From assembly GCA_963704645.1 (NCBI GenBank), contig OY969926.1, forward strand, positions 928,001 to 992,000: a DNA stretch of 64,000 nt, given 5' to 3'. Within the stretch, counting starts at the first letter, position 1; each line of letters opens with the position of its first letter. Shown here piece by piece: positions 1 to 64,000 of this stretch. Both the position numbers and the translations under genes were made by a program. The stretch is from an uncultured bacterium (GTDB taxonomy: Bacteria; Patescibacteriota; JACMRA01). The notes below the pieces were generated by a model that saw only the letters and a program-made list of their open reading frames with translations, ran no database searches and was not told the DNA's origin.

Positions 1-1140
1 AGCATAGCACTTTTTTCCATAATAGTATCTGGGCTATTTATTTTTAATTATGCTTATTTAACACCTTTACTTCTTGGTTTTATTTTTGCAACCTTAACTT
101 ACCCTATTTACACTTTTCTACAGAGCAAAATTAAATTTGAGAAACTAAAAGGTTCCTTTGCGGCTATAGTTACTATAATTGCTATTTCAGCAGGTATAAT
201 TAGCTTGCTAAATGTTATGACCAGAGAATTAATTAAGGAAGTTCCAACCTTTGCCACCTCTTTAATTGAATTTTTAGATGAAGTTCCTACTAATACCACA
301 ATTGTAAACATAAGTGCCAATTTCGGTTTAAACCAAGACGATTTAAGATCTATAGTTGATGAGTTAAAAGCTGAAACACCAGACACAAGCGCTTTAACAG
401 GAAGCGAGACTGACGGTAAAAAGTTTACGGAACTGTTCAGCCAAGAAAATATATCTGCGGCTTTAGATGTTAGTAGACAAGCTTTTAGCTATATTTTTAA
501 CCAATTAATTTACTTAGTCATATTTTTCCTAGCTTGGTTCAACGGTCTAGTTTTTGGTAAACTGTGGCTAGACGATTTGTTTGAAATTACACCTTTGGAA
601 GACGACGAAATTTTCCACATAAAGAAAGATTTAAAAACTGGTATACGTAATGTTATATACGCAAGTTTACTTTCTGGCGCAATTCACACAGTTGTTACAA
701 TTATAATTATGTTGGCTTTTGGTTTGCCAAATGTAAGTATAGTGGCAATTGCTGTTTTCTTAATTGGTATGCTTCCTGTTTCCCCATCGGAAATTGGCTA
801 TGCAATTCCAATTTTACTATTATTCCCTGTTAACCCAATGGCGGCATTAATTTTAATACCTATTTGTGAACTAATTATACTTTATGTGAACTATGTTTTG
901 CTACCTAAAGTAATAGCAGGTGGAGACGAAGGAAACCCATTATTAATTTTAACCAGCATTTTTTCTGGACTAGTAATTTTTGGAATAATGGGCTTTATTA
1001 TTGCTCCAGTTCTAATGATTTTAATTCAAACTTTATACAAAATTTTAGTTGAAAGAATTAGAATTCAAAAAGAAGAACTGCAAGAAATGAACGATTTACT
1101 AGAATCTGAAGAAACATCTTCACACCAAGCTAAAGCATAA
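1..1140 (+). CDS. AI-2E (PerM/YdiK-like) family transporter, 5' partial
   Basis: Frame is open from base 1 (SIALFSIIVSGLFIF...TYPIY). Multiple TM segments; C-terminal 'NPLLILTSIFSGLVIFGIMGFIIAP' is typical of AI-2E. Confidence 0.8.
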   Translation, partial: SIALFSIIVSGLFIFNYAYLTPLLLGFIFATLTYPIYTFLQSKIKFEKLKGSFAAIVTIIAISAGIISLLNVMTRELIKEVPTFATSLIEFLDEVPTNTTIVNISANFGLNQDDLRSIVDELKAETPDTSALTGSETDGKKFTELFSQENISAALDVSRQAFSYIFNQLIYLVIFFLAWFNGLVFGKLWLDDLFEITPLEDDEIFHIKKDLKTGIRNVIYASLLSGAIHTVVTIIIMLAFGLPNVSIVAIAVFLIGMLPVSPSEIGYAIPILLLFPVNPMAALILIPICELIILYVNYVLLPKVIAGGDEGNPLLILTSIFSGLVIFGIMGFIIAPVLMILIQTLYKILVERIRIQKEELQEMNDLLESEETSSHQAKA

Positions 1141-1147
1141 TAATTTT

Positions 1148-3385
1148 ATGGATGAGATTGAAGCTAAACAAAAAGCTATAATTGAAGGGCTTAACGCTCA
1201 ACAATATAAGGCTGTTCAAAGTATTACTGGCTCTACACTGGTTATTGCTGGGGCTGGTAGCGGAAAAACTGCTGTATTAACTAGAAGAGTGGCTTATTTA
1301 ATAGCTAATAACCAAATGCCAGGAAGTATATTGTGTCTTACCTTTACTAACAAGGCTGCTAAAGAAATGAATAGAAGGGTAAAAGATTTGCTTACAGAAG
1401 TTGGCATTTACCTACCCGAAATACCTATTTGGAAGGAAGATTATGTGCAAAACCCACTATTAGCTACTTTCCATAGCTTAGGTGTTAGGTTATTGCGTGA
1501 ATTTGGCTATGCAATTGAACTTAAAAAGGAATTTAGTATTTTAGATTCAGATGAACAGAAAAAAATTGTTAGGGAAATTTTGAAGGAATTAGATATTAGC
1601 GAAAAAAATGTACAGCCAAGTTTGGTTTTGTACTTTATTTCCCAGTGTAAACAGGAGCTGTTGGACGCGAGCAATAGCAGAAAATTAATTAAAGATTTCT
1701 TACCAATTTTCCACCAAATTTATGCAAAATATGAAAAGCGTTTAAAGCAAAGCCAAAGTGTAGATTTTGATGATTTGCTAATGCTTCCCTATATTATTTT
1801 GCGAGATAACAGTGATATTTTAGAAATTTTAAGACAGCGTTGGTGGCATATAATGATTGATGAGTTCCAAGATACCAACAGTGCTCAATTTAACTTGGTA
1901 AAGCTTCTTTGCCCATTAGAAATGTTGAATAAAGAGTTAGTAAATCCCCTTGGCCAACCAGCCCAAAGATCGTTGTTTGTAGTAGGTGACGATGCCCAAA
2001 GTATTTATGCTTTCAGAGGTTCTAAAATAGAAATTATTTTGAATTTTGAAAATGAGTACCAAAACACAACTGAAATTGTTTTGAACCAGAATTACCGTTC
2101 TACCCAACCAATTTTAGATTTAGCCGAAAAAATTCTAACCCACAACCCAAGGCAGAAGAAGAAACATTTATTCACCGAAAACAAAGATTCTTTGAAGGTA
2201 AATTATTACATGGCCAAAAACGAAAAAGATGAAGGTGAGTATATAATTAGGCAGTTATTTGAACAATACGCCAACAATAAAAGTACGGAGGTTCAAGCTG
2301 AAGAAGGAGATGTAAGCTTCCAACCAGATTCTTCGGTGGGTTTTGATGATTCAGTTCAATTCAGTCCAAGCAATATAAAAGTTAAAAATGACGACCCAGT
2401 TTCTAGAATGTTTGATGTTTACTTAGACGATGCAAGTTTTAGCCCAACCAGTTACGCCTTGCAAAGTTATTCACCCAGCAGCTGGCGGGTTCCTGAATAT
2501 AATTGGCAGAACCTTAAAGAATTAGATAAATGCGTTGTATTATACCGTACTCACGCCCAAAGTAGAAGTTTAGAAGAAACATTTTTGAAGTATCACCTAC
2601 CCTACAAATTGGTTAGCGGAGTAAGGTTTTTAGATAGAAGAGAAATAAAAGACATAATGTCTATTTTGAAGTTTATTGCTAACGGGGACGATAAAATTTC
2701 TTTAAGCCGCTTTTTACCTATTGTAATTGAAGGTGTTGGACCTAAAACTTTAGAAAAAATTCTAGCTTATTTAGAAGATTATAATTACCCGCTTGCTCCA
2801 AAATTTCAGGAAATATTGTTTAGCTTAATTGAAAAAATTCAAACTTGTTGGACTAATAGCACCAGTTTAATAGATTTAACAAAGCAATTGTTAGTTGTTA
2901 CAGGCTACGGCAGATATTTGAAGGCTCAGTTTCCTGCAAAAGAAGAATTTGAAGCCAGAATGGAAAATATTGGCGAACTGTACTCGCTTATGTTTCCTTT
3001 TGACGAAGATACAAGTGTAAGCATGCAAGAAAGACTAACCAACTTTTTAGCCCAAATTGCCCTAATGGGAGCTGTAGATGCAGAAGATTCTGAGAGTGCA
3101 CCTAAAATTAGTTTAATGAGCTTGCACCAAAGTAAAGGGTTAGAATTTGAAACTGTTTTCTTAGTAGGAATTGAAGATGGGCTTTTGCCTCATATGAATA
3201 GCTTTATGGAACCCGCTGGCATGGAAGAAGAAGTTCGTCTTGCCTATGTAGGTGTAACCAGAGCAAAGAAGTATTTACACCTTATTAACGCCGAAAGCAG
3301 AATTCAGTTCGGCCAAATAAAAGCAAATCCAATTTCCAGAATTTTCCGCCCATTCCTAGACAGCCACACCACCAGAAAAGTATAA
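1148..3385 (+). CDS. pcrA: UvrD/PcrA superfamily-1 DNA helicase with internal insertion
   Basis: AGAGSGKT, TFTNKAA, IDEFQDTN, VGDDAQSIYAFRG, QNYRS, HQSKGLEF, EEVRLAYVGVTRA. Confidence 0.95.
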   Translation: MDEIEAKQKAIIEGLNAQQYKAVQSITGSTLVIAGAGSGKTAVLTRRVAYLIANNQMPGSILCLTFTNKAAKEMNRRVKDLLTEVGIYLPEIPIWKEDYVQNPLLATFHSLGVRLLREFGYAIELKKEFSILDSDEQKKIVREILKELDISEKNVQPSLVLYFISQCKQELLDASNSRKLIKDFLPIFHQIYAKYEKRLKQSQSVDFDDLLMLPYIILRDNSDILEILRQRWWHIMIDEFQDTNSAQFNLVKLLCPLEMLNKELVNPLGQPAQRSLFVVGDDAQSIYAFRGSKIEIILNFENEYQNTTEIVLNQNYRSTQPILDLAEKILTHNPRQKKKHLFTENKDSLKVNYYMAKNEKDEGEYIIRQLFEQYANNKSTEVQAEEGDVSFQPDSSVGFDDSVQFSPSNIKVKNDDPVSRMFDVYLDDASFSPTSYALQSYSPSSWRVPEYNWQNLKELDKCVVLYRTHAQSRSLEETFLKYHLPYKLVSGVRFLDRREIKDIMSILKFIANGDDKISLSRFLPIVIEGVGPKTLEKILAYLEDYNYPLAPKFQEILFSLIEKIQTCWTNSTSLIDLTKQLLVVTGYGRYLKAQFPAKEEFEARMENIGELYSLMFPFDEDTSVSMQERLTNFLAQIALMGAVDAEDSESAPKISLMSLHQSKGLEFETVFLVGIEDGLLPHMNSFMEPAGMEEEVRLAYVGVTRAKKYLHLINAESRIQFGQIKANPISRIFRPFLDSHTTRKV

Positions 3386-3386
3386 C

Positions 3387-4239: not shown

Positions 4240-4247
4240 ACTTCTTA

Positions 4248-4277: not shown

Positions 4278-5558
4278 TTAATACCACCAATTCAACCCAT
4301 CAACTAAATTCTGACGATAATTGTTAATTTCCTCTTCAGTCATTTTATCTAAAATAAATTTGGAAATGTTTTGCCCTAGCTCATAACATTGTTGTGTTGT
4401 TATTCCTCTACTAGTCATAGCTGCTGTGCCAAAACGTAGCCCGGAAGGACGCCAGGCTGTTTTTGTATCGAAGGGAATTAGATTACGGTTACAAATAATA
4501 TTCACACTTTCTAGCTTCCTCTGAATTTCTAAGCTGTCTAAATTGTCTGGCAACTTTATTAAACATAGGTGGTTTTGAGTTGGATTGGCTATTTCCAAAC
4601 CTCCAGACAAAAGACCTAGTTCAAGCTGTTTGCAATTTTCTATAACTATTTCAGCATAATCTTTAAAACTAATACCATCTGGATACTTATCTTCCCCTAA
4701 AATTTCCATTAAGCCCTGACCTATTGCTGCAATTTGGTTTACATGCGGACCACCACTTGTACCTGGGAAAACCGTTTTGTTAAACTTAACCAAATGTTCT
4801 TTTTTAGCGAACACCATAGCTCCACGCCCTGCCCTTAAGGTTTTGTGGGTTGTCATAGAAACAAAATCTGCTCCGCTTTCGCCAGCTTTAAAAGGGGAAT
4901 CATGCAGGCCTGCTGCAACTAAACCGTTAATGTGAGCAATATCGGCTAGCACTAAAGCCCCATGTTGATGAGCAATTTCACAAAGTTTAGCAAATTCAAA
5001 TTTACGAGGATAAGCTGAAAAACCCAAAATTACTAACTTTGGTTTAAATTCTATTAACTTATTCGTAAAGTCTTCTTCATCAATTTCAAAAATTGTACTT
5101 CCAGAAACAACATCCAAACCTTCCTTTAAATCGTAATTAACTAAATTAAAAAACTTCAAATAAGCCGAAGTAGCATGCAAATGGGAAAGATGTCCACCAT
5201 TAGCCAAACTTAAACTTAATATTGTATCTCCAGCTTCTAAAATTGATAAAAACACCATGGCATTAGCAGGAGAGCCAGATAGAACCTGAACATTTACACC
5301 ATATTCTCCTTCACCATTTTCTTTTGTTTTATCGAATACCTGCAAAGCCAACTCTTGAACCTTGGTTTCTAATTGATCAGCGTAAACTTGGCCGGCATAG
5401 TAACGTTTCCCAGGATAACCTTCAGAATATTTATCACTCCAAATTGAACCCATTAAGGCTAAAGTTTTTGGGGAAGGATAATTATCTGAAGCAATTAAAT
5501 GAATGCTATTTTTTTGGCGAAGGGTTTCGGCGGAAGTAAGTTCAAAAAGCTGGTTCAT
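4278..5558 (-). CDS. glyA: Serine hydroxymethyltransferase
   Basis: LIASDN, KYSEGYPGKRYYAG, GGHLSH, PLP lysine in TTHKTLR, FPGTSGGP, SGLRFGT. Confidence 0.97.
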   Translation of the reverse strand: MNQLFELTSAETLRQKNSIHLIASDNYPSPKTLALMGSIWSDKYSEGYPGKRYYAGQVYADQLETKVQELALQVFDKTKENGEGEYGVNVQVLSGSPANAMVFLSILEAGDTILSLSLANGGHLSHLHATSAYLKFFNLVNYDLKEGLDVVSGSTIFEIDEEDFTNKLIEFKPKLVILGFSAYPRKFEFAKLCEIAHQHGALVLADIAHINGLVAAGLHDSPFKAGESGADFVSMTTHKTLRAGRGAMVFAKKEHLVKFNKTVFPGTSGGPHVNQIAAIGQGLMEILGEDKYPDGISFKDYAEIVIENCKQLELGLLSGGLEIANPTQNHLCLIKLPDNLDSLEIQRKLESVNIICNRNLIPFDTKTAWRPSGLRFGTAAMTSRGITTQQCYELGQNISKFILDKMTEEEINNYRQNLVDGLNWWY

Positions 5559-5660
5559 ACAATAATTATAGTTTTTAGAATAAATATTAAGTTAAATAAA
5601 TAACAATCTTCTAAAGTTTGCTGTCAATTCCCACTAGAACTTGCTGTGTTAATTAGTGGG

Positions 5661-5836: not shown

Positions 5837-6204
5837 TTACATACTTAAACCAAATGGTTCACCAAATGTGAGCTGATTAAGTTGAAAATGCCTGTGTTCC
5901 GATTCTAAAGGAGGTCGTCCTATCATATAATAGTAGCCTCCGATTGCCGACTTTGGAACATTAGCTGTAAAAGACAAATTTCCACAGGGAATAGTGCTTG
6001 GACTATCTCGAAAATCTTGTTCGCTGTAAATGAAATGATTGGTGTGTCCAACAATACAAAAAAAGAATGTCCATGTTCGTTAGGCTCTTCAATTTCACCA
6101 GTATGAACAACCACTCCTGGAAAGTTTGCTTTAAACATTGCTTCAATTTCAGCGATTTTATCATCATTTCCGTTTAATACAATTGCCAGGTAATTAACTA
6201 CCAT
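5837..6204 (-). CDS. Hypothetical protein (ORFan cassette), probably frameshifted near its 3' end
   Basis: The 93-aa ORF ends TGA-TAG at 5923. An alternative frame (TANVPKSAIGGYYYMIGRPP...GLSM) continues to TAA at 5837, just before the terminator GCAAGTTTTGAACTTGC-T tract. TTGACA at 6264-6259. Confidence 0.5.
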
Positions 6205-9771: not shown

Positions 9772-11559
9772 TTACCCGCCAACTTTCTTTTTATCAACTT
9801 CTGTAACTTTCATAGAAATTGCTGTTCCTTGGAAGTTAAACTGCTTTCTAACTACATTTTCTAGAAATCTAACGTAAGACCAATGAACTGTGGTTTTGTC
9901 TTTAATTAGAAGCTCGAAGGTTGGTGGTTTAGATTTGGAATATATTAAATCGTAAATAACGGCACGTTTTTTGTTAGCCACCTTGTTTGGCGGTTTTTTC
10001 TTCATTAAATAGTTGAACAGCTTTCTTAATTCGGCTTTATCAATTTGTTTTTCACGGTTAGCCAAAGATTCATCAATTTTTTCCCATATTTTATACAAAT
10101 TGGTCTTATTTATAGCCGAAACCCAAACGAAATCGTCTAGTTTTAAGAACACGAATTTATGCAAAAATGCTTTAATGAAGGCTTGCTTTTGCTCTTCATC
10201 AATTAAATCTGATTTGTTAGCAATAACTACCATCCCCTTTTTAGCTTGTTTACAAATTCCTGCCACAACCTGATCTTGATGAGAAATTGGTACAGAAGCA
10301 TCTACCACCAAACAAATTACGTCTGCCTGGTAAGCACTTTCCACGGTTCTAAAAGTGGCAAAAGTTTCAGCTCCAGTAGTCCGCTGCCCTGGCTTTCTAA
10401 TTCCAGTTGAATCTAGCAAAATGTATTCTTTATCAATCCATTCATATTCTGGTTTTGACTCTGCCTTTTGTGGAACTTTTTCTGAAATTTCTTTTTTAGC
10501 TAAAACTTTTTTAGGAAGATTAACTTCGCTTAGCTCTTCATCATCATCAGAATAAACTTCTTCGACCACTTCCTCATTATCTTCATATAATTCAGCTGCT
10601 TCATTAATTTCAGCAATATCTTCCAACATTTCTTCCGCTTCGAAACTGTCTAAATCTAATTCATCTAAATTAGCAGCTTCTTCTACTTTCTTTAAAACCT
10701 TAACTTTTCTGGTAAGTAATGTGTCGTTTACGCTTAAAGTTGTTCCTGGAATATCTGTAACAATTTGAATTTCACTTCCAATCATAGCATTGAACAAAGA
10801 GCTTTTTCCAACATTTGGTTTACCCAACAACAAAATTTTTGGCTTTTGTGGTTCTTTGTCTTGCTCATCAGCGCTATCTGGATCTATTCCTTCATCTTCC
10901 AAGACTACTTCGTACAAACCAGGACCGTCTTCGTTGTTTTCTCTGGTAACATAATAAGATCCATCATTCAGCATTTTTACAATGCCGGCTTTTTCACGCT
11001 TTTTCTTTTTGTGATCTAAAATTTTAAATGGTTCTTCCGGGCTTTTTTCGTAACCCATGGCCAAACATTTTTCCACCAAAGCATCAAGCAAATCGTTAAT
11101 TCCATAACTGTTGGTAGCACTAACGTTTACAAAAGCAAAGCCACCTAATCTGGCGTAATCGGCCACACTTTTTTCTAAATTAGGGTCGTCTACTTTGTTA
11201 ACTGCTACCATGAACGGCTTTCCCACTTTCCACAGTTTTTGTAACAATTTCTGAGGAATATTTTCCGGGTTCTGCCTTCTATCTATTACCCAAACCAAAA
11301 TGTCGGCTTCGGCTAAAGCCCCAAAAGATTTTATCTGAATTTCTTTCTGAATTTTATCTTCAGGGTCTGGAACTAAACCACCTGTGTCCACAAATTGCAT
11401 GTACATGTTGTCCCACTCGGTTTCTGACCAGTTTAAATCTCGGGTTGTATGCTCTTCTTTAGCTGTAATGGCTTTCTTGGTTCCACAAACACGGTTTAAC
11501 AAAGTACTTTTACCAGAATTTGGTAGCCCAAAAAAGGCTATAGTTGGTATTGCTTTCAT
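9772..11559 (-). CDS. der: Ribosome biogenesis GTPase Der/EngA with large acidic insertion
   Basis: Two G domains (GLPNSGKST/DTGG/NKVD and GKPNVGKSS/DSTG/NKSD) plus KH-like C-terminus (PPTF...SYVRFLEN). Start moved to ATG 11559 because the track's TTG start is the TTGACA -35 box. Confidence 0.93.
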   Translation of the reverse strand: MKAIPTIAFFGLPNSGKSTLLNRVCGTKKAITAKEEHTTRDLNWSETEWDNMYMQFVDTGGLVPDPEDKIQKEIQIKSFGALAEADILVWVIDRRQNPENIPQKLLQKLWKVGKPFMVAVNKVDDPNLEKSVADYARLGGFAFVNVSATNSYGINDLLDALVEKCLAMGYEKSPEEPFKILDHKKKKREKAGIVKMLNDGSYYVTRENNEDGPGLYEVVLEDEGIDPDSADEQDKEPQKPKILLLGKPNVGKSSLFNAMIGSEIQIVTDIPGTTLSVNDTLLTRKVKVLKKVEEAANLDELDLDSFEAEEMLEDIAEINEAAELYEDNEEVVEEVYSDDDEELSEVNLPKKVLAKKEISEKVPQKAESKPEYEWIDKEYILLDSTGIRKPGQRTTGAETFATFRTVESAYQADVICLVVDASVPISHQDQVVAGICKQAKKGMVVIANKSDLIDEEQKQAFIKAFLHKFVFLKLDDFVWVSAINKTNLYKIWEKIDESLANREKQIDKAELRKLFNYLMKKKPPNKVANKKRAVIYDLIYSKSKPPTFELLIKDKTTVHWSYVRFLENVVRKQFNFQGTAISMKVTEVDKKKVGG

Positions 11560-11674
11560 GTTTACAATCAAATCTGTATGTTTAGGCTTTGTCAAAACAA
11601 CTTACTTAAACAACAATCTTGCCAGTTTTCCCCCAACAAAAAAGAGTAATGGCATAACCAAAACTCTTCTAAGT

Positions 11675-14256: not shown

Positions 14257-15477
14257 ATGTTAAAGGCTTTAATTTTTGACTCTTACTTTGATAAACACAG
14301 GGGCGTAATTGCTTTTATTAGGCTATTTAATGGAACACTAAAGCCAGGAGATACAATTTATTTTTTACAAACCAGTACCAAGGTAAATGTATTGGAAGTT
14401 GGAATTTTCAAGCCAGATTTACAACCAATAGACGTTTTAAGTAGTGGTGAAGTTGGTTATGTGGTAACCGGTTTAAAAGAGCTGGAAAAAGTAAAAGTTG
14501 GTGACACCATAACCCACACAGATAACTTAAGCTTGGCATTACACGGTTATAAAGAAGTTGAGCCAAAGGTTTATTCTAGTATTTTTCCTACAGATGCTTC
14601 AGACTATCCTAAATTACGCGAAGCAATTGCTAAATTAAAACTAAGTGACGCTTCTTTGCAATATCAAACTGAAAACATTCCAGCCCTTGGCTTTGGCTTT
14701 AGATGTGGCTTTCTAGGCCTTTTACACATGGATATTGTACAAGAAAGACTTAGTCGGGAATTTGATTTGGATCTTGTTTTAACCACTCCGTCTGTTCAAT
14801 ACCAAATAGAGGAATTTAACGGAGAAACTTATACAATACACACACCTTCCTTGCTTCCAGACCCAAGTAAAATTAAAAATATTTACGAACCGTGGATTAA
14901 AATTGAAATTATTACCCCAGATATTTACATTGGTAAAATTATTGAATTAATTACTGGTAAACGTGGCAGTTACAGCTCTATTTCGCCATTAGCCCAAGAT
15001 CAAGTACAAATTACTGGCGAATTACCCCTGGCAGAAATGATTGTAGATTTTTACGATGAATTGAAATCATCCACCAAAGGTTTTGCCACTATGTCTTACG
15101 AAATTATTGGCTTTAAGGAAGGCGATTTAGTAAAAATTGATATTTTAGTAAACAAGAAAGTTGTTGATCCACTTTCGGTAATGACTCACCGTGCACAATC
15201 TGAAGAAAAAGGTAGAGAAATTTGTGAGAAATTAAAAGAGCTTATTCCTAGGCAGCAATTCGATATTGCCATTCAAGCTTCAATTGGAGCCAGAGTTATT
15301 GCCAGAGAAAGCATTAAACCATTCAGGAAAGATGTTACGGCCAAGCTGTACGGAGGTGACCCTAGTCGAAGAATGAAGCTTTTGGATAAACAAAAAGCAG
15401 GAAAAAAGAAGATGAAAATGGTAGGAAACGTAGAAATTCCTCAGTCTGCCTTCTTAAATGTTTTGAAAAAGAGTTAG
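14257..15477 (+). CDS. lepA: Elongation factor 4 (LepA), domains II to CTD only; G domain absent
   Basis: Begins LKALIFDSYFD (start of domain II); GFRCGFLGLLHMDIVQERL; RKDVTAKLYGGD...KQKAGKKKMK. In-frame stops lie directly upstream. Confidence 0.92.
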   Translation: MLKALIFDSYFDKHRGVIAFIRLFNGTLKPGDTIYFLQTSTKVNVLEVGIFKPDLQPIDVLSSGEVGYVVTGLKELEKVKVGDTITHTDNLSLALHGYKEVEPKVYSSIFPTDASDYPKLREAIAKLKLSDASLQYQTENIPALGFGFRCGFLGLLHMDIVQERLSREFDLDLVLTTPSVQYQIEEFNGETYTIHTPSLLPDPSKIKNIYEPWIKIEIITPDIYIGKIIELITGKRGSYSSISPLAQDQVQITGELPLAEMIVDFYDELKSSTKGFATMSYEIIGFKEGDLVKIDILVNKKVVDPLSVMTHRAQSEEKGREICEKLKELIPRQQFDIAIQASIGARVIARESIKPFRKDVTAKLYGGDPSRRMKLLDKQKAGKKKMKMVGNVEIPQSAFLNVLKKS

Positions 15478-40064: not shown

Positions 40065-40487
40065 ATGCCTAAACTATTTCTAGCCAAAACCGACCCTCAA
40101 ACTTACTCTGTTTATGATTTAGCCAGAGATAAAGAAACTAACTGGGACGGAGTTCACAGCAACCCTGCTTTGTTGGTAATTAGATCTTGGGAAATTGGAG
40201 ACTTAGTTTTAGTTTATCACTCTCAAGGTGAGGCAAAAATTATGGGTTTAATGGAAGTTATAGGTCAACCAGTAAAAGATGAAAATGACCCTAGACCAAG
40301 CTGGTACGCCAAAGTACGTTTTATTCAACATTTTGCTGAAGATAAACAAGTAACTTTAAAGGAAATTAAGGAAACTGGTTTGTTTCAAGATTGGCTTTTA
40401 GTAAGGCAGGGAAGACTTTCCACAATGGCCTGCCCCGATAATTTTACTTATTGGTTTCAAAAGAGAGTTGACCAGAAGCTGCTTTAA
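40065..40487 (+). CDS. EVE domain protein
   Basis: LAKTDPQTYS...WDGVHS...GDLVLVYHS...VTLKEIK...RQGRLS. Confidence 0.9.
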   Translation: MPKLFLAKTDPQTYSVYDLARDKETNWDGVHSNPALLVIRSWEIGDLVLVYHSQGEAKIMGLMEVIGQPVKDENDPRPSWYAKVRFIQHFAEDKQVTLKEIKETGLFQDWLLVRQGRLSTMACPDNFTYWFQKRVDQKLL

Positions 40488-46900: not shown

Positions 46901-49687
46901 CCATTACCAGCTAAGGTATTAGTATTAATCCAAACTGAACCTCCTGAACCACTGTTACCAACACTACTTCCATTAGCTAATATACTTCCGTTGTTAGTTA
47001 AAGTACCTGTAATGTTTAGTTTAATAGATCCACCACCATTTGCTCCATTATTAGCACCTCCACTACCTAAATCAGTAGGTTCAGTGATTGAGCCATAGGA
47101 ATTTCCTCCAATGTTGGTTGGGCCACCATTTCCTCCATAACCACCAGCATAAGATGCAGATGCACCAGGGCCTTGAGAGGAAGCATAGCCTTTAGCTGTA
47201 GCGTCAATTGTTCCTCCGACATCTATAGTTAAATTAGTGAAGGTTAGATCTAGCTTGTAGTTTTCATTAGCTGCTAATGTGGTATTTGGAGATGTAGTTA
47301 AGTATCCACCATTTTGAACATTTAGGACGGCCTGAGAAATATTAGTAGGGCTTGATTTGCTTTCCCAATAACCAGACAAGGTAACAGCATTAAGATTGTT
47401 AGAAAATGCTAATAGATTATTTTGGTAGAAATTTGTTCCTGTATTAACATCAAAAGTAGTATTTAAAATAGTTAAATCTTTGTTTAAGACTACATTAGCT
47501 TTGTTGGTTACTATTAAGTTATCTAGAGTTGTTAAAGATAGACTAGTTGAATTAACAGTGGTGGTAGGGAAGCTGCTTGAACCTCCAATATTTCCATTAT
47601 CTATTCTAAGATTACCATTTACTAGAACTGCATCATTTGTATCTTTTTCATATACCGTACCTGCTCCACCAGAACCATTATTTAAATTAACACCTCCACT
47701 TGCACTAACACTTCCAGTTAAAGTTTTACTTTGGTAGTATAGAGCTATTCTTCCTCCACCTCCACCATAAGAACCATTTCCTCCATTAGCATTAATGTTA
47801 CCATTACCAGCTAAGGTATTAGTATTAATCCAAACTGAACCTCCTGAACCACTGTTACCAACACTACTTCCATTAGCTAATATACTTCCGTTGTTAGTTA
47901 AAGTACCTGTAATGTTTAGTTTAATAGATCCACCACCATTTGCTCCATTATTAGCACCTCCACTACCTAAATCAGTAGGTTCAGTGATTGAGCCATAGGA
48001 ATTTCCTCCAATGTTGGTTGGGCCACCATTTCCTCCATAACCACCAGCATAAGATGCAGATGCACCAGGGCCTTGAGAGGAAGCATAGCCTTTAGCTGTA
48101 GCGTCAATTGTTCCTCCGACATCTATAGTTAAATTAGTGAAGGTTAGATCTAGCTTGTAGTTTTCATTAGCTGCTAATGTGGTATTTGGAGATGTAGTTA
48201 AGTATCCACCATTTTGAACATTTAGGACGGCCTGAGAAATATTAGTAGGGCTTGATTTGCTTTCCCAATAACCAGACAAGGTAACAGCATTAAGATTGTT
48301 AGAAAATGCTAATAGATTATTTTGGTAGAAATTTGTTCCTGTATTAACATCAAAAGTAGTATTTAAAATAGTTAAATCTTTGTTTAAGACTACATTAGCT
48401 TTGTTGGTTACTATTAAGTTATCTAGAGTTGTTAAAGATAGACTAGTTGAATTAACAGTGGTGGTAGGGAAGCTGCTTGAACCTCCAATATTTCCATTAT
48501 CTATTCTAAGATTACCATTTACTAGAACTGCATCATTTGTATCTTTTTCATATACCGTACCTGCTCCACCAGAACCATTATTTAAATTAACACCTCCACT
48601 TGCACTAACACTTCCAGTTAAAGTTTTACTTTGGTAGTATAGAGCTATTCTTCCTCCACCTCCACCATAAGAACCATTTCCTCCATTAGCATTAATGTTA
48701 CCATTACCAGCTAAGGTATTAGTATTAATCCAAACTGAACCTCCTGAACCACTGTTACCAACACTACTTCCATTAGCTAATATACTTCCGTTGTTAGTTA
48801 AAGTACCTGTAATGTTTAGTTTAATAGATCCACCACCATTTGCTCCATTATTAGCACCTCCACTACCTAAATCAGTAGGTTCAGTGATTGAGCCATAGGA
48901 ATTTCCTCCAATGTTGGTTGGGCCACCATTTCCTCCATAACCACCAGCATAAGATGCAGATGCACCAGGGCCTTGAGAGGAAGCATAGCCTTTAGCTGTA
49001 GCGTCAATTGTTCCTCCGACACTACCAGACAATGCAGCAACCTTAAACGCATACCCCTGAGCTAGTGTAAGAGTAACCCCAGAGTTAACTTGAAAGTTAC
49101 CAACATTACAATATCTACTAGTTGCATTTGTAAGAGTGGTGTTAGTACTATAGATTAAATCTGCTCACATCACAGTCATAACTAGCTAAAGTAGATAAAG
49201 GAGAAGTGGCACTTAAACCATTACCATTTTTAGCAAATACTTTAAACTGATAAGCTGTACCAGCTATTAATTCTTTACTTGAACTTAGATTGTAAGTAAG
49301 AGCTGTATTTACTCCATCATTTAAAAGATTGTTTACAGATGCAAAGTTATCTGTACTGTATCTAATCTCATAATCTGTAATAGGATCTCCTCCATCACTA
49401 GCTGGAGCTGTCCAGGATAGAATGTCATTACCTGTAGTATCTGTAGTAGAAGTAACTCCTGTTATGTCTCCTGGTATTGTTCCTGCAGCTTTAGCTACAT
49501 TTCTTTCTTCATTTAAACTTGAATAAGCTACTAAACCAGTTATAACTAATACTAGTGCAATAAAACCAAATTGTAATATTTTGGATGGTTTCTTTTTAAG
49601 AAAGTTAAATATATTTTTATTACTTGTATTTTTTTGAAATGGTTTAGATTCAATACCAGAATTAGGTTTAGTGTTTATACTAGACAT
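43957..49687 (-). CDS. Giant surface protein (TM, FN3-like domain, Gly-rich repeats, Cys modules), split by one frameshift near 49165
   Basis: ORF 49148-49687 (LSWTAPASDGGDPITDYEIRY, FN3-like) continues in the +1 frame as ADLIYSTNTT...VAALSGSVGG into ORF 43957-49032. Confidence 0.8.
46751..49021. repeat. Perfect 900-bp coding tandem repeat, about 2.5 copies
   Basis: Sequence lines repeat identically at a 900-nt offset (46751/47651/48551). Confidence 0.95.
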
Positions 49688-50241: not shown

Positions 50242-51471
50242 ATGCTACCTAAAAGTTTGAAGACAGACAATAACTCAAGATCCGACAGTTACCTTTCTTC
50301 CTCAAAATTCAGCCCAGCGGCAAAAATCAAAGTTATCGGAACAGGTGGTGGAGGTGGCAACGCCGTACGTAGAATGATTGAAATTGGGGTTGAAGGTGTA
50401 GAATTTTGGGCAATGAACACAGATTTACAAGCCTTAAAATCTATTCACGCAGATGGAATTGTTCAACTAGGAACCAACGTAACCAGAGGACTAGGTGCTG
50501 GAATGAGTGCCGAAGTTGGAAGACAAGCAGCTGAAGAAAGCATGGCCGAAATTGAAGCTGCCTTAGCAGGTGCTGACATGGTATTTATTACAGCTGGTAT
50601 GGGCGGAGGAACAGGAACTGGTGCAAGCCCTGTTGTAGCTGAAGTTGCCAAAAGGATGGGTATTTTAACGGTTGGTGTAGTTACTAAACCTTTCGATTTT
50701 GAAGGTGCAAAAAGAAGGCAGTTAGCTGAAGAAGGTATTGAAAGACTAAAAGCCAACGCTGACGCAGTAATTATTGTTCCAAATCAAAGACTTTTACAAA
50801 TTATTGATAAGCGCACAAGTTTGTATGAAGCTTTCAAAATTTCCGACGATATTTTAAGACAGGCTGTTCAAGGAATTTCCAATTTAATCAACCTACCTGG
50901 TGAAGTTAACGTAGATTTCGCAGACGTTAGAGCAATTATGAGCAACGCTGGAACTGCTTTAATGGGAATGGGACGAGCAAGTGGAAGTGGAGAAGATACA
51001 GCCAAGAACGCAGCTTTAATGGCCATAGATTCGCCTTTACTTGAACTTAGCATTGAAGGAGCTAGGGGAATTTTGTTTAACGTTGAAGGAGGTAAAAATC
51101 TTTCATTGTTAGCCGTAAGCGAAGCCGCAGACATTATTAAGCATCACGCAGACCCTGAAGCTAAAATTATTTTTGGAACTTCCATTGATCCTAATTTACA
51201 GGACGAAATTAAAATTACAGTTGTTGCTACTGGTTTTACTAAAGAAAAAGAAGATATGGCAATGTACGGTGGAAACCAAAGTATGGGCAGAGTTGAAAGC
51301 AAACTACCATATACACCACCAAAGTTTGGAGGAAGAGAGGAAAACATTAACAGAAACACCCCTACCCCTTCTAACAACGTACAAGCTAAAAAAGATTCTT
51401 ACGACGAAGAAAAGCTAGAAATTCCTGCCTTCCTAAGAAACAAAATTACAGGTCAAAACGACGACGAGTAG
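50242..51471 (+). CDS. ftsZ: Cell division protein FtsZ
   Basis: [32 protein letters not shown]-terminal LEIPAFLR. Confidence 0.98.
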
Positions 51472-57215: not shown

Positions 57216-60200
57216 CTACTTTTCTAACTCTTGTAATCTACTTTCAATACCATCTAATTTGGCTTTTAATTTAGAATTTTCTGTTTCCAGGTTCTTAATT
57301 TTAGCGTCTTGTTCTGCATTAGCCTTTTCAATACCCAAAATAATATCTTTTACTTCTTGAATACTATTTAAGAACGATGTCTTCAATGTTTCAATATCAA
57401 AACTTAAACCTGTGGAAGTGTCTGAACTTGTTGTAGAGCTAGAGTTAGCAGAGTCAGCCTTTAAAGCTTCAATTTCTTTTTGTTGTTCCTGAATAGATTT
57501 TACTAGAATTGGAGTAATGTCTTGCAATGAAACGAAAGAGTTATTTTGTTCATCTTTACTAATTAATTTGCTGCTGGATGTTAACAAATTAAAGCTGTAC
57601 AAAGTTTGACCATCTTTAAAGTTAGAAACAACTTGCAGGTCTTTAATTAAGTCTAAGCCGTTTTCAACTTTGCTTCCTGTTGAAACCATTTCAAGGCCAG
57701 ATTGGTTAATTTCGTCTGAACTTGAAGACAAACTTGGAGTTGCTGTTGCTACATTTTCTGAAGAAATATCTGAAGTTAAAGTAGAAAGCTTGTCTAAACC
57801 AGCCAACTTTTCATTTACGCTAGCAAAATTAGTTTGTAATTCTTTAATTTGATCTTGCTGAGTTTTAAAACCAAGCAAAATTTCGTCTACAATTTTTTGA
57901 TCGAAACCAGAGTAAGTTGTATCTGGAGAAGATGTTTTAGTTAATCCTAGAGAAGCTAATTCGTTGTCACCTAAAATTTCCTGAGTATTTAAATTGTTCA
58001 AACTTAAACTTGGGCTGGTGAAGATAGAAGATAAATCAAAGTTTACTGGTGCCTGCCAGAAACCTGGTTCTACAAATACTACAACTTCACCTTGATCTTG
58101 AGGGTTTTGTGGTTCAAAAGAGGTTAAAGCCTTACCAACAACCCTACCCGATTTTGTGGCTAACATACCTACACCTTCAATATCTGAAGAAGTAACTTGA
58201 TCACCAGCTTTAATATTACCATTTTTAGCTGTAACTTTTACTGGAACACGTCCTGTTAAGGCAACTGCTACTGGCTTTCCACGACCATCATTGGCACCCA
58301 ATACTTGACCAGGATCTGTTGACACAATACCAATTGCTTTTTCAGAGCCAACCTTATTAGTTAAGTTAACTTGACTTTGTCCATCTCCAGCTAATTCTAC
58401 AATTTGTCCAGGTACAGCCTTACCATCTAAATTATAGTAAATTTCAGCTAAATCAGCACCAGATACCTTGTAAGCAACCATATAAGAATAAGCACGAATT
58501 GTTGTTCCAGTATTGTTACTGGAGTTTTGAGCAAACTGAATTTGAGCGGTTCCAGTAGCTCCTGCTGTAAAGGAACCATAAAACTGAGTTGTTGCAGCAG
58601 TAGTGTTACTTGCAACAACAGAGTTACCAATTGCAGCTCCACAAGTATTTGTACTTGATTTATTACTTGTTGAATATTCACCTGATGCTAATTGACAGTT
58701 AGTTGAACCTGCTGGTAAGGCCAAATTAAATCTAATTCCTCCCGGAGCAGTCCTAGGGTTATCGCCAGGTCCTCCAACTAATGGATAAGAAACAAAAGCC
58801 CATGTATCACCTGCTTTTACATTCCAAGTCCATTCAGGAATTGCCACAACTGTTGTGCTATTTGTAACAGTTTGATCCACATTTTTAACAATTTCTATTT
58901 GAGATTCACTGTCTTCCCCTCCAATTTGTTTCCAGGAACTACCATTCCACATTGCCTGAACAGTTTTTCCTGCATCTAATCTATTACCAAATATTGTAAA
59001 TCCGCTTGTACCAATATTGTTAATATAAACAATTCTACCAGATGTTGTGTCTGTAGGGTTTGGCAATGTTAAAGTTTGGGAAGCTGTTGTTTGGTTAATG
59101 TTAAATGTTGTTTTAACATCTACAGTTGTTAAGGCTGTTCCTATGCTTCCACCAAGAGGTAAATCTGAAATTGATGTAGCAGAATTTAAGCTAGAACCAG
59201 AATTTACTAAGTTTGTTACTGTTGTAATGTCAGTATTACTATCACCCAAAGAAGTGTTGCCGTTAACGTTTAAGTTATTGTTCAAAGTTTTGTTTCCAGC
59301 AAAAGATTGTGTTCCTGTTGAAACTAAACCTGCGTTAGAAGCATCTGCAGTTTGTAAAACAAGATTGTTTCCAGAAATTACAGCACCGTTAGCAGACTTT
59401 GTTTGAGAATCTAAAGTACCTATTCCGCTAATTCCTCCTGTAGTGCTGCAAGTCCAAACTGCGGTTCCAGCAGACCATCTTAAAACTTGTGTATCGGAAC
59501 AACCGCCAAGCAATCTTATTCCTGTTGCTGTGCTTTCAATACCAGAGTTGGATGAAGTTGTAGCAGTAGTTCCAGCTGTTGTAGCGTCAACCGCAATATC
59601 GTTTGCATTTACTGTAATTCCGTCACCAGCCCCAATGTCTAATGTTACATTTCCACCTAACGCAACAGCCCCGCCAGTAATTAAGCCTGCACCAGAAGTA
59701 ATTGTGACACTTGAATTTGCCAAATCTGCGTTAACAATGCTTCCGTCTAGAATTTTTAAAGAATCTACAGAACCTGAAGCTAAATCTGATAATACAATGG
59801 TTCCATCTAGAATATTAGTTGAAGTTACACCACCAGTTGCAATGTCTGCAGTTAATATTGTGCCATCAAGCAACATAGCAGAGGTTATTCCTCCAGCGGA
59901 AATTCCTAAAGTATAAGGGTTACCTGCTGTACCAGCACCGCTTCTAGTTAATCCACCAGCTGCTGTAGCATTTAGAACTTCATTTCCAACTATTCCGTCA
60001 GTTTCTGTGGTAATATAAGCAGAGTTAGAACCTGTTGTTACTCTTCCTTGTGCGTCTACGATAACGTTGTTGTATGTTCCAGCGGTCACGCCTGTATTGG
60101 TTAAACTGAAGGAGTCTGCTGTAAATTGTAATCCTGTTCCTGCAGTTGGGAAAGCTCGCTTAGAAAGAACTCCGTTTGAATCTACGGCAACAATTTGAGC

Positions 60201-63200
60201 TTGAGTAGAAGTGCTTAAAGATCTAATTCTAGCTGTTCCATTAACATCTAATGTTTCTGTTGGTGTACCTGTTCCAATACCAAACTTTCCAGTTTCATCA
60301 ATTACCGCACGTAGTGCTGGAGCACCTACTCCGCCTGTGGTGAAGAATTTAATTTTAGAAGTAGCGCCCAAAGCAGCTAGGTTTAAGGTTGTGTCACTAG
60401 AATACAAATATGCATCGTTAGCATCTGTGAAAGGTGCAGTTGCACCAGCCTGACCGTTAATACCCAAATTTACGTAGTAACTTGATTCTGTACCATTGTT
60501 AGCTGTAGCCACAATATCTGAAGAAGCCGAAGCACCTGTATTTAAGTTTTGAATATTGAATTGGAAGTAACTATCAATGTTACCCTTAATATCTAAACCG
60601 GTGTATTGATTAGGATCAGCATTAATTGCAACTTTAGAATTATTTGGATTTGATGCGGTGTTTACTAGTATGTTTCCTGTGGCCGCATCCACTCTAAAAG
60701 CTTCATCATTGTTTGTTTTGAAAACTAAATCTGCAAGATCAGTTGTACCAATGAAGTTAGTTGCAGATGAAGTACCTGAATTACCATTCAAAGACCAAGA
60801 ATTACTAGAAGAATCTGTGTCACAGTTCCAACCAGCTAATAAAGGCCCTGCTGCATCTGGATCGGTTACATAGTATTTTAAAATTTGTCCTGAAGATGAA
60901 CAATTTGCTAAATCTGCACCAGCTATAGAGCCATTTACAATTTTAGTTGAATCTACAGAGTTAGAACCTAAATCTACCAGAGCAATACCGCCATCTGCAA
61001 TTTTAGCGGAGTCTACGGCTGAGGTTGCTAGTTTGGTATTAGTTACTCCACCAGTAGCTATTCCAATAGTATATGGGTCTAAGGCTGTTCCACTTCCTGC
61101 TCTCACTAATCCTTGGCTGGTTGTAGCATCTAAGATTTCATTTCCTACTATTCCGTCTGTTTCACTACTTAGGTAACTTACGTTAGATCCAGAGATTACT
61201 CTTCCTTGAGCATCTGTTGTTACATTGTTGTATGTTCCTGCTGTTCCTGTGTTGGATAGGTTGTAGGAGATTTGTGATCCACTTCTTACAGCTGTAGTTC
61301 CTGTTCCATTAGTAAAGTCTATTGTAGAACCTGCTGAAATGTTTTGTGTTGTTCCTCCGTTACTAGAGATGTTAAAGTTTGTTGTGTCTACGTCTGCAGT
61401 ACATACGAAGGCTGTTCCTGTCCATTGTAGTTTAGTTACTCCTGAACAAGTTGGTGAGTTAATAGAGAAGGCTCCTGAAGTTAGAGTTACTCCGTTTCCT
61501 GCTGTGTAGGTGTTGTTACTGTCCGTACCACATGTCCAAGATACTCCATTGTATTTTAATATTTCACCAGAGTTAGTACAAGGTGTAAGTTTAGCTAAAG
61601 ATACTGAAGCATTAGCTAAGTCTGCTGTGTTTACAGATCCATCCACTATCTTAGTAGAATCTACAGAGTTAGAACCTAAGTCTACCAAAGAGATAGAACC
61701 ATCTAATATACTGGTTGAGTCTATTGCTCCGGATACAAAGTCTGCTGAAGTGATAGAACCGTCTACTATTTTGGTTGAGTCTATAGAGTTGGAGGCTAGA
61801 TCAGCTAAAGAGACAGTTGCGTCTACAATTTTAGAAGAATCTACAGAGTTAGAACCTAGGTCTACTAAAGCAATAGCTCCATCGGCAATTTTGGTTGAGT
61901 CTACAGCTGAAGTTGCTATCATTAGTCCTGTTACTCCACCCGTAGATATTCCAATAGTATAAGGGCTGACTGCTGTACCTGCTCCGCTTCTAGTCAATCC
62001 TCCAGATGCAGTAGCATCTAAGATTTCATTTCCTACTACTCCATCTGTTTCACTACTTAGGTAACTTACGTTAGATCCAGAGATTACTCTTCCTTGAGCA
62101 TCTGTTGTTACATTGTTGTATGTTCCTGCTGTTCCTGTGTTGGATAGGTTGTAGGAGATTTGTGATCCACTTCTTACAGCTGTAGTTCCTGTTCCATTAG
62201 TAAAGTCTATTGTAGAACCTGCTGAAATGTTTTGTGTTGTTCCTCCGTTACTAGAGATGTTAAAGTTTGTTGTGTCTACGTCTGCAGTACATACGAAGGC
62301 TGTTCCTGTCCATTGTAGTTTAGTTACTCCTGAACAAGTTGGTGAGTTAATAGAGAAGGCTCCTGAAGTTAGAGTTACTCCGTTTCCTGCTGTGTAGGTG
62401 TTGTTACTGTCCGTACCACATGTCCAAGATACTCCATTGTATTTTAATATTTCACCAGAGTTAGTACAAGGTGTAAGTTTAGCTAAAGATACTGAAGCAT
62501 TAGCTAAGTCTGCTGTGTTTACAGATCCATCCACTATCTTAGTAGAATCTACAGAGTTAGAACCTAAGTCTACCAAAGAGATAGAACCATCTAATATACT
62601 GGTTGAGTCTATTGCTCCGGATACAAAGTCTGCTGAAGTGATAGAACCGTTTACTATTTTGGTTGAATCTACGGAGTTGGAGGCTAGGTCTGAGGAACCT
62701 ACTGTTCCATCTAATATCTTATCTGAAGTTATTGCGTCTGAGGCAATGTCTACGTTGGATATACTTCCGTCTACTATCTTAGATGAGTTGATAGAGTTAG
62801 AAGCTATCATTAATCCTGTTACTCCACCATTAGAGATACCTAAAGTGTAAGGATCTAGAGTAGTTCCAGAACCAGAACGTACTAATCCTTGGCTAGTTGT
62901 AGCATCTAAGATTTCATTTCCTACTACTCCGTCTGTTTCACTACTTAGGTAACTTACGTTAGATCCAGAGATTACTCTTCCTTGAGCATCTGTTGTTACA
63001 TTGTTGTATGTTCCTGCTGTTCCTGTGTTGGATAGGTTGTAGGAGATTTGTGATCCACTTCTTACAGCTGTAGTTCCTGTTCCATTAGTAAAGTCTATTG
63101 TAGAACCTGCTGAAATGTTTTGTGTTGTTCCTCCGTTACTAGAGATGTTAAAGTTTGTTGTGTCTACGTCTGCAGTACATACGAAGGCTGTTCCTGTCCA

Positions 63201-64000
63201 TTGTAGTTTAGTTACTCCTGAACAAGTTGGTGAGTTAATAGAGAAGGCTCCTGAAGTTAGAGTTACTCCGTTTCCTGCTGTGTAGGTGTTGTTACTGTCG
63301 GTACCACATGTCCAAGTGGATGTAGTAGTAGAATATTTTAACAATTCATTATTAGCACAAGCCTTTAAATCTACTGTGTATGGGCTTACTGTGGTTCCAG
63401 CACCAGTTCTGACCAAACCTGTAGTTGCTCCAACATTTGCAATTTCATTGCCTATTATTCCATCAACTTCATTAGTAATTCCTACAACATCGGCGTCACA
63501 ATTCCAACCTGCTGTTAATGGGCCTACTCCGTCTGGATCGGTTACATAATATTTTAAAATTTGAGCAGCAGAAGAACAGTTAGCAAGCTTAGATCTAGAA
63601 ATTGCTCCATCGGCAATATCACCTGCAAGAATAGACAAATCTTGAATTTTACTGGAATTAACAGCTGCAAAAGCCAAATCAGCATTATCTACAGAACCAT
63701 CTACAATTTTAGTTGAATCGATAGAGTTTGGTGCTAAATCTGCTAAAACTATTGAACCATCTACAATTTTAGTTGAGTCTATAGAGTTGTTGGCTAACAT
63801 ACTTAAAGAAATTCCACCTGACATAATTCCTAAAGTATAAGGATCTAAATCTGTTCCAGTGCCAGAACGAACTAGGCCTTGTGATGCTGTAGCGTCAGTA
63901 ACCTCATTTCCAATTACAGCGTCAGTTTCAGAACCTACACCGTTATCAGTGGAACACTCCCAAGCCGAAGTTGTTGAATTGTATTTCAAAATCTGCCCAG
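57216..64000 (-). CDS. Giant tail-fibre-like adhesin (5' partial) with intramolecular-chaperone-like C-terminus
   Basis: Frame is open to the window end. IxDGSIxxADL repeats; GTYNNVTTDAQGRV; GADLAEIY...GIVSTDPG...VALTGRVPVKV; PILVKSIQEQQKEIEALK; terminal coiled coil. Confidence 0.85.
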   Translation of the reverse strand, partial: GQILKYNSTTSAWECSTDNGVGSETDAVIGNEVTDATASQGLVRSGTGTDLDPYTLGIMSGGISLSMLANNSIDSTKIVDGSIVLADLAPNSIDSTKIVDGSVDNADLAFAAVNSSKIQDLSILAGDIADGAISRSKLANCSSAAQILKYYVTDPDGVGPLTAGWNCDADVVGITNEVDGIIGNEIANVGATTGLVRTGAGTTVSPYTVDLKACANNELLKYSTTTSTWTCGTDSNNTYTAGNGVTLTSGAFSINSPTCSGVTKLQWTGTAFVCTADVDTTNFNISSNGGTTQNISAGSTIDFTNGTGTTAVRSGSQISYNLSNTGTAGTYNNVTTDAQGRVISGSNVSYLSSETDGVVGNEILDATTSQGLVRSGSGTTLDPYTLGISNGGVTGLMIASNSINSSKIVDGSISNVDIASDAITSDKILDGTVGSSDLASNSVDSTKIVNGSITSADFVSGAIDSTSILDGSISLVDLGSNSVDSTKIVDGSVNTADLANASVSLAKLTPCTNSGEILKYNGVSWTCGTDSNNTYTAGNGVTLTSGAFSINSPTCSGVTKLQWTGTAFVCTADVDTTNFNISSNGGTTQNISAGSTIDFTNGTGTTAVRSGSQISYNLSNTGTAGTYNNVTTDAQGRVISGSNVSYLSSETDGVVGNEILDATASGGLTRSGAGTAVSPYTIGISTGGVTGLMIATSAVDSTKIADGAIALVDLGSNSVDSSKIVDATVSLADLASNSIDSTKIVDGSITSADFVSGAIDSTSILDGSISLVDLGSNSVDSTKIVDGSVNTADLANASVSLAKLTPCTNSGEILKYNGVSWTCGTDSNNTYTAGNGVTLTSGAFSINSPTCSGVTKLQWTGTAFVCTADVDTTNFNISSNGGTTQNISAGSTIDFTNGTGTTAVRSGSQISYNLSNTGTAGTYNNVTTDAQGRVISGSNVSYLSSETDGIVGNEILDATTSQGLVRAGSGTALDPYTIGIATGGVTNTKLATSAVDSAKIADGGIALVDLGSNSVDSTKIVNGSIAGADLANCSSSGQILKYYVTDPDAAGPLLAGWNCDTDSSSNSWSLNGNSGTSSATNFIGTTDLADLVFKTNNDEAFRVDAATGNILVNTASNPNNSKVAINADPNQYTGLDIKGNIDSYFQFNIQNLNTGASASSDIVATANNGTESSYYVNLGINGQAGATAPFTDANDAYLYSSDTTLNLAALGATSKIKFFTTGGVGAPALRAVIDETGKFGIGTGTPTETLDVNGTARIRSLSTSTQAQIVAVDSNGVLSKRAFPTAGTGLQFTADSFSLTNTGVTAGTYNNVIVDAQGRVTTGSNSAYITTETDGIVGNEVLNATAAGGLTRSGAGTAGNPYTLGISAGGITSAMLLDGTILTADIATGGVTSTNILDGTIVLSDLASGSVDSLKILDGSIVNADLANSSVTITSGAGLITGGAVALGGNVTLDIGAGDGITVNANDIAVDATTAGTTATTSSNSGIESTATGIRLLGGCSDTQVLRWSAGTAVWTCSTTGGISGIGTLDSQTKSANGAVISGNNLVLQTADASNAGLVSTGTQSFAGNKTLNNNLNVNGNTSLGDSNTDITTVTNLVNSGSSLNSATSISDLPLGGSIGTALTTVDVKTTFNINQTTASQTLTLPNPTDTTSGRIVYINNIGTSGFTIFGNRLDAGKTVQAMWNGSSWKQIGGEDSESQIEIVKNVDQTVTNSTTVVAIPEWTWNVKAGDTWAFVSYPLVGGPGDNPRTAPGGIRFNLALPAGSTNCQLASGEYSTSNKSSTNTCGAAIGNSVVASNTTAATTQFYGSFTAGATGTAQIQFAQNSSNNTGTTIRAYSYMVAYKVSGADLAEIYYNLDGKAVPGQIVELAGDGQSQVNLTNKVGSEKAIGIVSTDPGQVLGANDGRGKPVAVALTGRVPVKVTAKNGNIKAGDQVTSSDIEGVGMLATKSGRVVGKALTSFEPQNPQDQGEVVVFVEPGFWQAPVNFDLSSIFTSPSLSLNNLNTQEILGDNELASLGLTKTSSPDTTYSGFDQKIVDEILLGFKTQQDQIKELQTNFASVNEKLAGLDKLSTLTSDISSENVATATPSLSSSSDEINQSGLEMVSTGSKVENGLDLIKDLQVVSNFKDGQTLYSFNLLTSSSKLISKDEQNNSFVSLQDITPILVKSIQEQQKEIEALKADSANSSSTTSSDTSTGLSFDIETLKTSFLNSIQEVKDIILGIEKANAEQDAKIKNLETENSKLKAKLDGIESRLQELEK
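61123..63316. repeat. 888-bp coding tandem repeat, about 2.5 copies
   Basis: GTAGCATCTAAGATTTCATTTCCTACTA recurs at 61123, 62011 and 62899. Confidence 0.9.

Follow-up and report, generated by a model that had tools for sequence, protein, structure and literature searches.

The window analysed here is a 64-kb stretch (bases 928001-992000) of C1, the single contig of a bacterial genome of 1,272,640 bp and 33.4% GC (G000 below), and our subject is the scarcity of the stop codon TGA at the ends of its genes. Other G-numbers denote comparison genomes, and class, family and phylum are those of G000. The gene set consists of non-overlapping open reading frames (ORFs) picked greedily by length, and the window set comprises those of at least 60 amino acids (aa) that lie wholly inside the window. 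The 59 ORFs of this set end in TAA (34), TAG (24) and TGA (1), in close agreement with the 34/23/1 counted by hand in a preliminary description of the same stretch, and at a cut-off of 100 aa the counts are 25 TAA, 21 TAG and 0 TGA. The single TGA at 5923 and the TAG immediately after it, both pointed out in that description, were seen on the minus strand. At the 20.3% TGA expected from the intergenic trinucleotides of G000, the probability of finding at most one TGA among 59 stops is 2.5e-5, and at the pooled share of ~16.8% in the other families of the phylum it is 2.5e-4. At the 3.5% that G000 itself shows, the probability is 0.38, and the window is thus typical of its genome.

The features of the window are listed in the table. 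The Pfam models of UvrD, SHMT, Der, RNase J, PyrG and FtsZ run to their ends ahead of the stop codon, which is TAA or TAG in each of these conserved genes. For the one ORF that ends in TGA, 25 other genomes of the family yielded no homolog, and it may therefore not be a real gene. By eye, a hairpin resembling a terminator, with a run of T behind it, can be made out about 90 nt downstream of this ORF. The 360-nt gap between this ORF and glyA (window 5560-5920) contains GC-richer stretches and the terminator-like hairpin, and an Rfam scan of the gap gave no riboswitch or other RNA at gathering score.

Table. Features of the 64-kb window (positions within the window)
Feature	Position	Strand	Evidence and stop codon
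UvrD/PcrA-type helicase	1148..3385	+	Pfam UvrD-helicase and UvrD_C; stop TAA
glyA, serine hydroxymethyltransferase	4278..5558	-	Pfam SHMT positions 7-397/399, E 4e-100; stop TAA
93-aa ORF, the only TGA-terminated one in the window	5923..6204	-	TGA at 5923-5925, TAG directly next
Der/EngA double GTPase	9772..11595	-	Pfam MMR_HSR1 (3 stretches) and KH_dom-like 2-79/81; stop TAA
LepA/EF4 C-terminal two thirds, separate gene	14257..15477	+	Pfam GTP_EFTU_D2, EFG_C and LepA_C (107/107), no G domain; stop TAG
RNase J	23630..25771	-	Pfam RNase_J_b_CASP and RNase_J_C (102/102), to residue 713/713; stop TAA
tRNA-Phe(GAA), the only tRNA in the window	26131..26205	-	ARAGORN; Rfam RF00005, 64.4 bits
CTP synthase (PyrG)	40444..42132	-	Pfam CTP_synth_N and GATase 2-189/190; stop TAA
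1691-aa ORF	43957..49032	-	no Pfam match; open under table 11, no in-frame TGA; stop TAG
FtsZ	50242..51471	+	Pfam Tubulin and FtsZ_C; stop TAG
ORF of >2257 aa, runs past the window end	57216..63998	-	no Pfam match; open under table 11 and free of in-frame TGA

Tabulation over the whole genome showed that the shortage is not confined to the window. At minimum ORF lengths of 60, 100, 200 and 300 aa, TGA ends 58/1192 (4.9%), 36/1033 (3.5%), 14/629 (2.2%) and 8/411 (1.9%) of the ORFs, respectively. At the 100-aa cut-off, TAA accounts for 58.6% and TAG for 37.9% of the stops, while the intergenic trinucleotides of G000, taken on both strands, predict 57.0% TAA, 22.7% TAG and 20.3% TGA. TGA is thus about 6-fold under and TAG about 1.7-fold over expectation, with TAA equal to it, and the probability of 36 or fewer TGA stops among 1033 at 20.3% is ~4e-57. 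The preliminary description had called TGA an almost empty codon. This holds in the window (1/59), but it is overstated for the genome as a whole, where the 36 TGA-ended ORFs include several that are supported by domains.

In G000, TGA terminates conserved genes at their natural C-termini. The TatD gene ends in TGA after its Pfam model has been completed (253/253) at residue 306 of 307, and a class I/II aminotransferase (Pfam 349/361) ends in TGA followed by TAA. Further domain-bearing genes with this stop encode an HD_4 protein, a GT2 glycosyltransferase, an RNase H and a DegT-family aminotransferase. The orthologs of TatD and DegT in G001 are of similar length and stop at TAA. Part of the TGA "stops" of G000 arise as by-products or mark genes that are mobile or decayed. 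A serine recombinase ORF has its TGA inside a tRNA-Ala, and further TGA ends were found on a transposase-like ORF, on a Type ISP fragment and on a 75-aa ORF that occurs three times. In all copies of the 75-aa ORF (C1:375010-375237, 393638-393865 and 1243122-1243349) the TGA context is the same, suggestive of a repeated, possibly mobile element. The TGA-ended ORFs are shorter than the rest (median 160 aa vs ~250; p = 0.0008), and some of them are therefore probably spurious or broken. That TGA is carried by foreign genes was considered and rejected, the GC3 of TGA-ended ORFs showing no difference from that of the others (p = 0.13).

Frameshifts, whether from assembly or mutation, add TGA ends, because 23% of the off-frame stops in G000 are TGA, and they therefore do not explain a TGA deficit. 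One such case is the primary sigma factor gene (rpoD). A one-base frameshift near C1:1112701-1112708 divides it, and the fragment upstream of the shift runs into an off-frame TGA. In 4/4 relatives rpoD is an intact, single frame of 739-749 aa. The shift in G000 is probably an assembly error. The C-terminal end of the sigma factor carries a fused TsaE domain; the fusion measures 731 aa in G019 (L181:970-3162, -) and is an open frame of 739-749 aa in each of G001, G014 and G009, and the G000 gene lies at C1:1111590-1113700. The selection of ORFs by length alone and the presence of at least one frameshift in an essential gene, rpoD, might be taken to mean that the TGA shortage is an artefact of the ORF-based gene set or of assembly errors. 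However, the deficit deepens with the length cut-off (from 4.9% at 60 aa to 1.9% at 300 aa) and persists both in ortholog-supported genes (2/154) and in 19 ribosomal protein genes (0 TGA). Moreover, frameshift errors inflate the TGA count, as the split rpoD shows, and the TGA-ended ORFs are the shorter ones, so that an artefactual shortage is hardly credible.

We searched G000 for UGA as a sense codon and, among the cases examined, found no gene or domain that continues in frame across a TGA. Another accepted ORF lies in frame behind only 2 of the 58 TGA-ended ORFs, and in each case the two are distinct genes (a transposase-like ORF with LeuRS, and an unknown ORF with a patatin-like gene). The 19 ribosomal protein genes are uninterrupted and use no TGA stop, and table-11 ORFs cover 88% of the genome. 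ARAGORN listed 41 tRNAs and a tmRNA, among them all 40 tRNA matches of Infernal, and neither program found a UCA-anticodon tRNA or a tRNA-Sec in G000. The tRNA-Gly anticodons are GCC, UCC and CCC only, and in the ARAGORN drawing of the single-copy tRNA-Trp(CCA) the anticodon stem comprises at least 5 pairs. A 4-pair anticodon stem in tRNA-Trp(CCA) is linked to UGA reading in the accessible text of PMC13092985. Given that there is no in-frame sense TGA and no UCA tRNA and that the tRNA-Trp(CCA) stem is of normal length, the preliminary description was right to set aside codes 25 and 4. A narrower proposal, that UGA is decoded at a few sites (selenocysteine, programmed read-through or a cryptic suppressor) and is a stop elsewhere, is compatible with the backup stops enriched after TGA (see below), which could point to a leaky UGA. 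We give it next to no chance in view of the missing tRNA-Sec and UCA anticodon (ARAGORN, Infernal), a tRNA-Trp(CCA) stem that is not of the 4-pair form, and domains that in the cases examined never span a TGA. The same tRNA list contains a tRNA-Ile with the anticodon UAU (C1:1155868-1155945) and only two CAU tRNAs, and AUA is therefore probably read in G000 without a lysidine-modified tRNA.

PxT and SPF are the codon-recognition tripeptides of RF1 and RF2, respectively. Two genes of G000 carry an RF-1 domain: an RF1 gene of 357 aa with PAT and GGQ, and the RF2 gene prfB, an uninterrupted ORF of 363 aa with SPF and GGQ. Among solved chains, the prfB product matched RF2 at E 4e-69 and its best RF1 at E 8e-47. 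The class comprises 27 species genomes in two families, and RF2-level matches were found in 24 of them, the three misses being 64-79% complete; in the phylum, 238 of 251 sampled genomes (completeness at least 80%) had an RF2 match at E 1e-95. Judged from their sequences, both release factors are intact in G000 and RF2 is not lost, contrary to the loss of RF2 that the preliminary description had considered for this lineage. As for the programmed frameshift site of prfB (CTT TGA C near codon 26), no CTTTGA is present in the first 200 nt of G000 prfB, and 23 of the 24 prfB matches of the class have no internal stop. The prfB of G019 (L113:1468-2559, -) itself ends in TGA, a codon read only by the product of prfB.

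The RF2 of G000 scored 361.9 bits on TIGR00020, under the curated cut-off of 370. The class is low on profiles generally (rplB 316-337 bits vs 340-412 in most other genomes; RF1 low too), and RF2 is therefore not specially divergent. The RF2s of G000 and G019 are 52.6% identical, close to the 56.8% that the orthologs of these two genomes show on average. The codon-recognition region reads TRETSF in all 23 readable class RF2s (24 matches, with L106 of G020 left out) and RRHTSF in solved RF2 chains. The SPF motif of RF2 is located at 205-207 (PMC5378476). Counted from this motif and from Phe217, the Glu of the class sits at the position of His214 in E. coli. In 15 other families of the phylum, this position is occupied by His (4), Gln (9) or Glu (2). 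In RF2 itself, this His has a stacking role. According to a portion of a preprint (bioRxiv 10.1101/2021.03.10.434893), the corresponding His of an RF1-type factor stacks on the second base of the stop codon. Genomes with the substitution use TGA often (G028 with Glu, 22/88; G026 with Gln, 29/97; G038 with Gln, 30/108), so the substitution alone is no sign of poor UGA reading. Two RF2s, those of G009 and G030, have SPY instead of SPF, and both genomes still use TGA stops.

The TGA share of relatives was determined in samples of 26-207 kb, with 100 aa as the minimum ORF length. TGA ended 3 of 187 ORFs in G001, which belongs to the same genus, and 9 of 90 in G025 of the sister family. In members of the same family, the share was low, as in G001, for G019 (4/105), G002 (2/59) and G014 (3/96), and ordinary, as in G025, for G009 (9/78), G003 (11/78), G017 (11/72) and G011 (5/23). 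The share thus runs from 1.6% to 22% across the class and rises with GC (Spearman 0.78 for n = 10 related, non-independent genomes), and 12 genomes of other phylum families ranged from 4.9 to 29.9% (pooled 174/1060). A tree of 41 genomes, built from 15 ribosomal proteins (quick search, LG+G4, SH-aLRT support only), pairs G014 (3% TGA) with G009 (12%) as sisters. Stop codons were also compared in 154 ortholog pairs of G000 and G001 (mean identity 68.7%). Two of these genes end in TGA in G000 and three in G001, with none shared, and TAA and TAG are swapped in 61 of the pairs. The unshared TGA stops and the common TAA/TAG swaps therefore indicate a fast turnover of stop codons, with TGA held at a low equilibrium and not eliminated. 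We found no literature on stop codon usage in Patescibacteria.

In the same tree, the class (support 100) stands beside the pair G039 and G216 of family f16 (support 99). G039 has the Glu variant and a low TGA share (4/107), and RF2 was found in 60 of 61 sampled genomes of its large class. The ribosomal protein operon was examined in 12 of the 13 phylum genomes that gave no RF2 match, G169 being left out because it gave no match to rplB. No in-frame TGA was found in the ribosomal proteins of the 12, and several of these genomes end such genes in TGA. The RF2 misses are probably assembly gaps, and the phylum sample held no recoded genome, possibly through the completeness filter. In G000, the ribosomal protein cluster (C1:143500-163800, -), as read from N-terminal sequences, appears to have an unusual order, with S19 before L2 and S17 before L16; L29, L30 and secY would be missing, and between S5 and L15 there would be L25 and an EF-Ts-like ORF. 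LepA/EF4 is divided between two genes. The window ORF holds domains II to the C-terminus (TIGR01393 positions 188-594), and the GTPase domain (positions 1-189) is encoded ~215 kb away at C1:1158074-1158712 (-). The split, with profile positions 1-186 and 188-594 at different sites, was seen in 5/5 class genomes searched.

Taking these results together, we consider it very probable that G000 uses the standard bacterial code (table 11) and that UGA is a working but strongly disfavoured stop read by an intact RF2. TGA would end ~1.5-3.5% of genes, beside UAA at ~59% and UAG at ~38%, and this low share would be the bottom end of a continuous, fast-changing, GC-linked trait that spans 5-30% across the phylum. 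Individual TGA stops would be gained and replaced over the time in which the species of one genus diverge. The extra deficit relative to intergenic composition may reflect selection against UGA as a terminator, possibly caused by UGA leakiness or by low RF2 capacity. The preliminary description had instead proposed a stage of codon disappearance that precedes reassignment. This is not borne out, as TGA still ends real genes and class members with the same RF2 type have 10-22% TGA; the low share is therefore fast-moving and GC-linked, with no fixed stage of disappearance. The rarity of TGA in G000 would accordingly be an ordinary extreme of the known GC trend and not a code in transition.

Several observations weigh against this interpretation. 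The gene set was built from length-chosen ORFs and not from curated genes. Composition alone does not explain a TGA share ~6-fold below the intergenic expectation, and phylum members of similar GC content are rich in TGA (G026, 34.1% GC, 29/97; G028, 36.1% GC, 22/88). TAG stands at 38% in G000 vs 26% pooled in other phylum members (277/1060), and bacteria typically have ~20% according to the consulted portion of PMC8789281; the high value looks like a shift to the stops read by RF1. A second stop follows within 3 codons in 17 of the 36 TGA-ended ORFs, vs 28% past TAA or TAG (Fisher p = 0.023). The TAG enrichment and the backup stops fit either UGA leakiness or low RF2 capacity, and the backup-stop enrichment fits equally well with recent nonsense mutations just upstream of an older stop. 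Finally, in a large survey, prfB genes that have lost the frameshift site are associated with high TGA usage, as far as its available sections tell (PMC12421855), but G000 lacks the site and has low usage.

Some of these observations would also follow if RF2 were functionally weakened or scarce for UGA. RF1 would then dominate, selection would remove UGA and favour UAG, and UGA could later be captured. This corresponds to the proposal of the preliminary description with the loss of RF2 taken out. TGA 6-fold below and TAG 1.7-fold above the intergenic expectation, with TAA matching it, are as this explanation would have them, and so are the backup stops enriched after TGA (17/36 vs ~28%, p = 0.023). 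It could also draw on the Glu in TRETSF of all 23 readable class RF2s where solved chains have His, on a prfB without frameshift autoregulation, and on an RF2 score below the curated 370 bits. Nevertheless, G009, G003, G017 and G011 have an RF2 of the same SPF/TRETSF/GGQ type (SPY for SPF in G009) and TGA shares of 11-22%; G028, with Glu, has 25% TGA, and Gln or Glu occurs in 11 of 15 other-family RF2s, including those of genomes at 24-30% TGA. The low profile scores are general in the class (rplB, RF1), the RF2 identity of 52.6% between G000 and G019 is near the ortholog mean, and conserved genes are still TGA-ended. Overall, we regard a weakened or scarce RF2 as unlikely.

A bolder version would place the whole genus (G000 and G001, ~1.5-3.5% TGA, none shared) at a near-UGA-free equilibrium, kept there by a Glu-variant, non-autoregulated RF2 that terminates poorly at UGA; the genus would then be a living standard-code intermediate of codon capture. 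If true, this would be the intermediate that the codon-capture model requires before UGA is reassigned, in what is, to our knowledge, the only bacterial phylum that holds codes 4, 11 and 25. We find this very doubtful. An unassigned codon in the sense of that model is not what G000 presents, with 36 TGA-ended ORFs of at least 100 aa, and RF2 occurs with conserved motifs in 24/27 class genomes.

Known systems resemble G000 in some respects and differ from it in others. In bacteria, TGA usage climbs strongly with GC and TAG stays near 20% (Ho & Hurst, PMC8789281, in the sections drawn on here). G000, with 33% GC, few TGA and mostly TAA stops, and its class, in which TGA rises with GC, resemble this general trend. 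They depart from it in the TAG share of G000 (38% instead of ~20%), in a TGA share ~6-fold under the intergenic one, and in phylum members of the same GC that reach 25-30% TGA. The lineages with code 25 (UGA = Gly) are placed in the GTDB class JAEDAM01, comprising Absconditabacterales and BD1-5, of the same phylum (PMC13695967, as excerpted). Like G000, they have small AT-rich genomes with almost no TGA at gene ends. Unlike G000, in which prfB is intact and there is neither a UCA tRNA nor an in-frame TGA, they are without prfB and many have a tRNA-Gly(UCA) (same excerpt of PMC13695967). The code-4 (UGA = Trp) lineages of Minisyncoccia share with G000 the phylum and a small genome; according to the same partial source (PMC13695967), they lack prfB and mostly have a tRNA-Trp(UCA), whereas G000 has only tRNA-Trp(CCA) and RF2 is present. 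Genomes of the phylum are small throughout (0.5-2 Mb). In Mycoplasmatota, the prfB frameshift motif is absent, TGA usage is particularly low and many species are without prfB (PMC12421855, available sections). G000 is similar in its prfB without programmed frameshift, low TGA and reduced AT-rich genome, but it belongs to another phylum and keeps prfB, and ordinary TGA usage is found in close relatives that have the same prfB type.

If the standard-code reading is correct, as we think very probable, scarce TGA stops in a 64-kb window of a small AT-rich genome are no signal of a changed or changing code, and table 11 is the right table for annotating G000. The RF2s of the phylum commonly swap the His of the codon-recognition strand for Gln or Glu and yet keep TGA stops. 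The class shifts its TGA share from ~2% to ~20% between genera of the same RF2 type and therefore offers a useful natural series for the determinants of stop usage.

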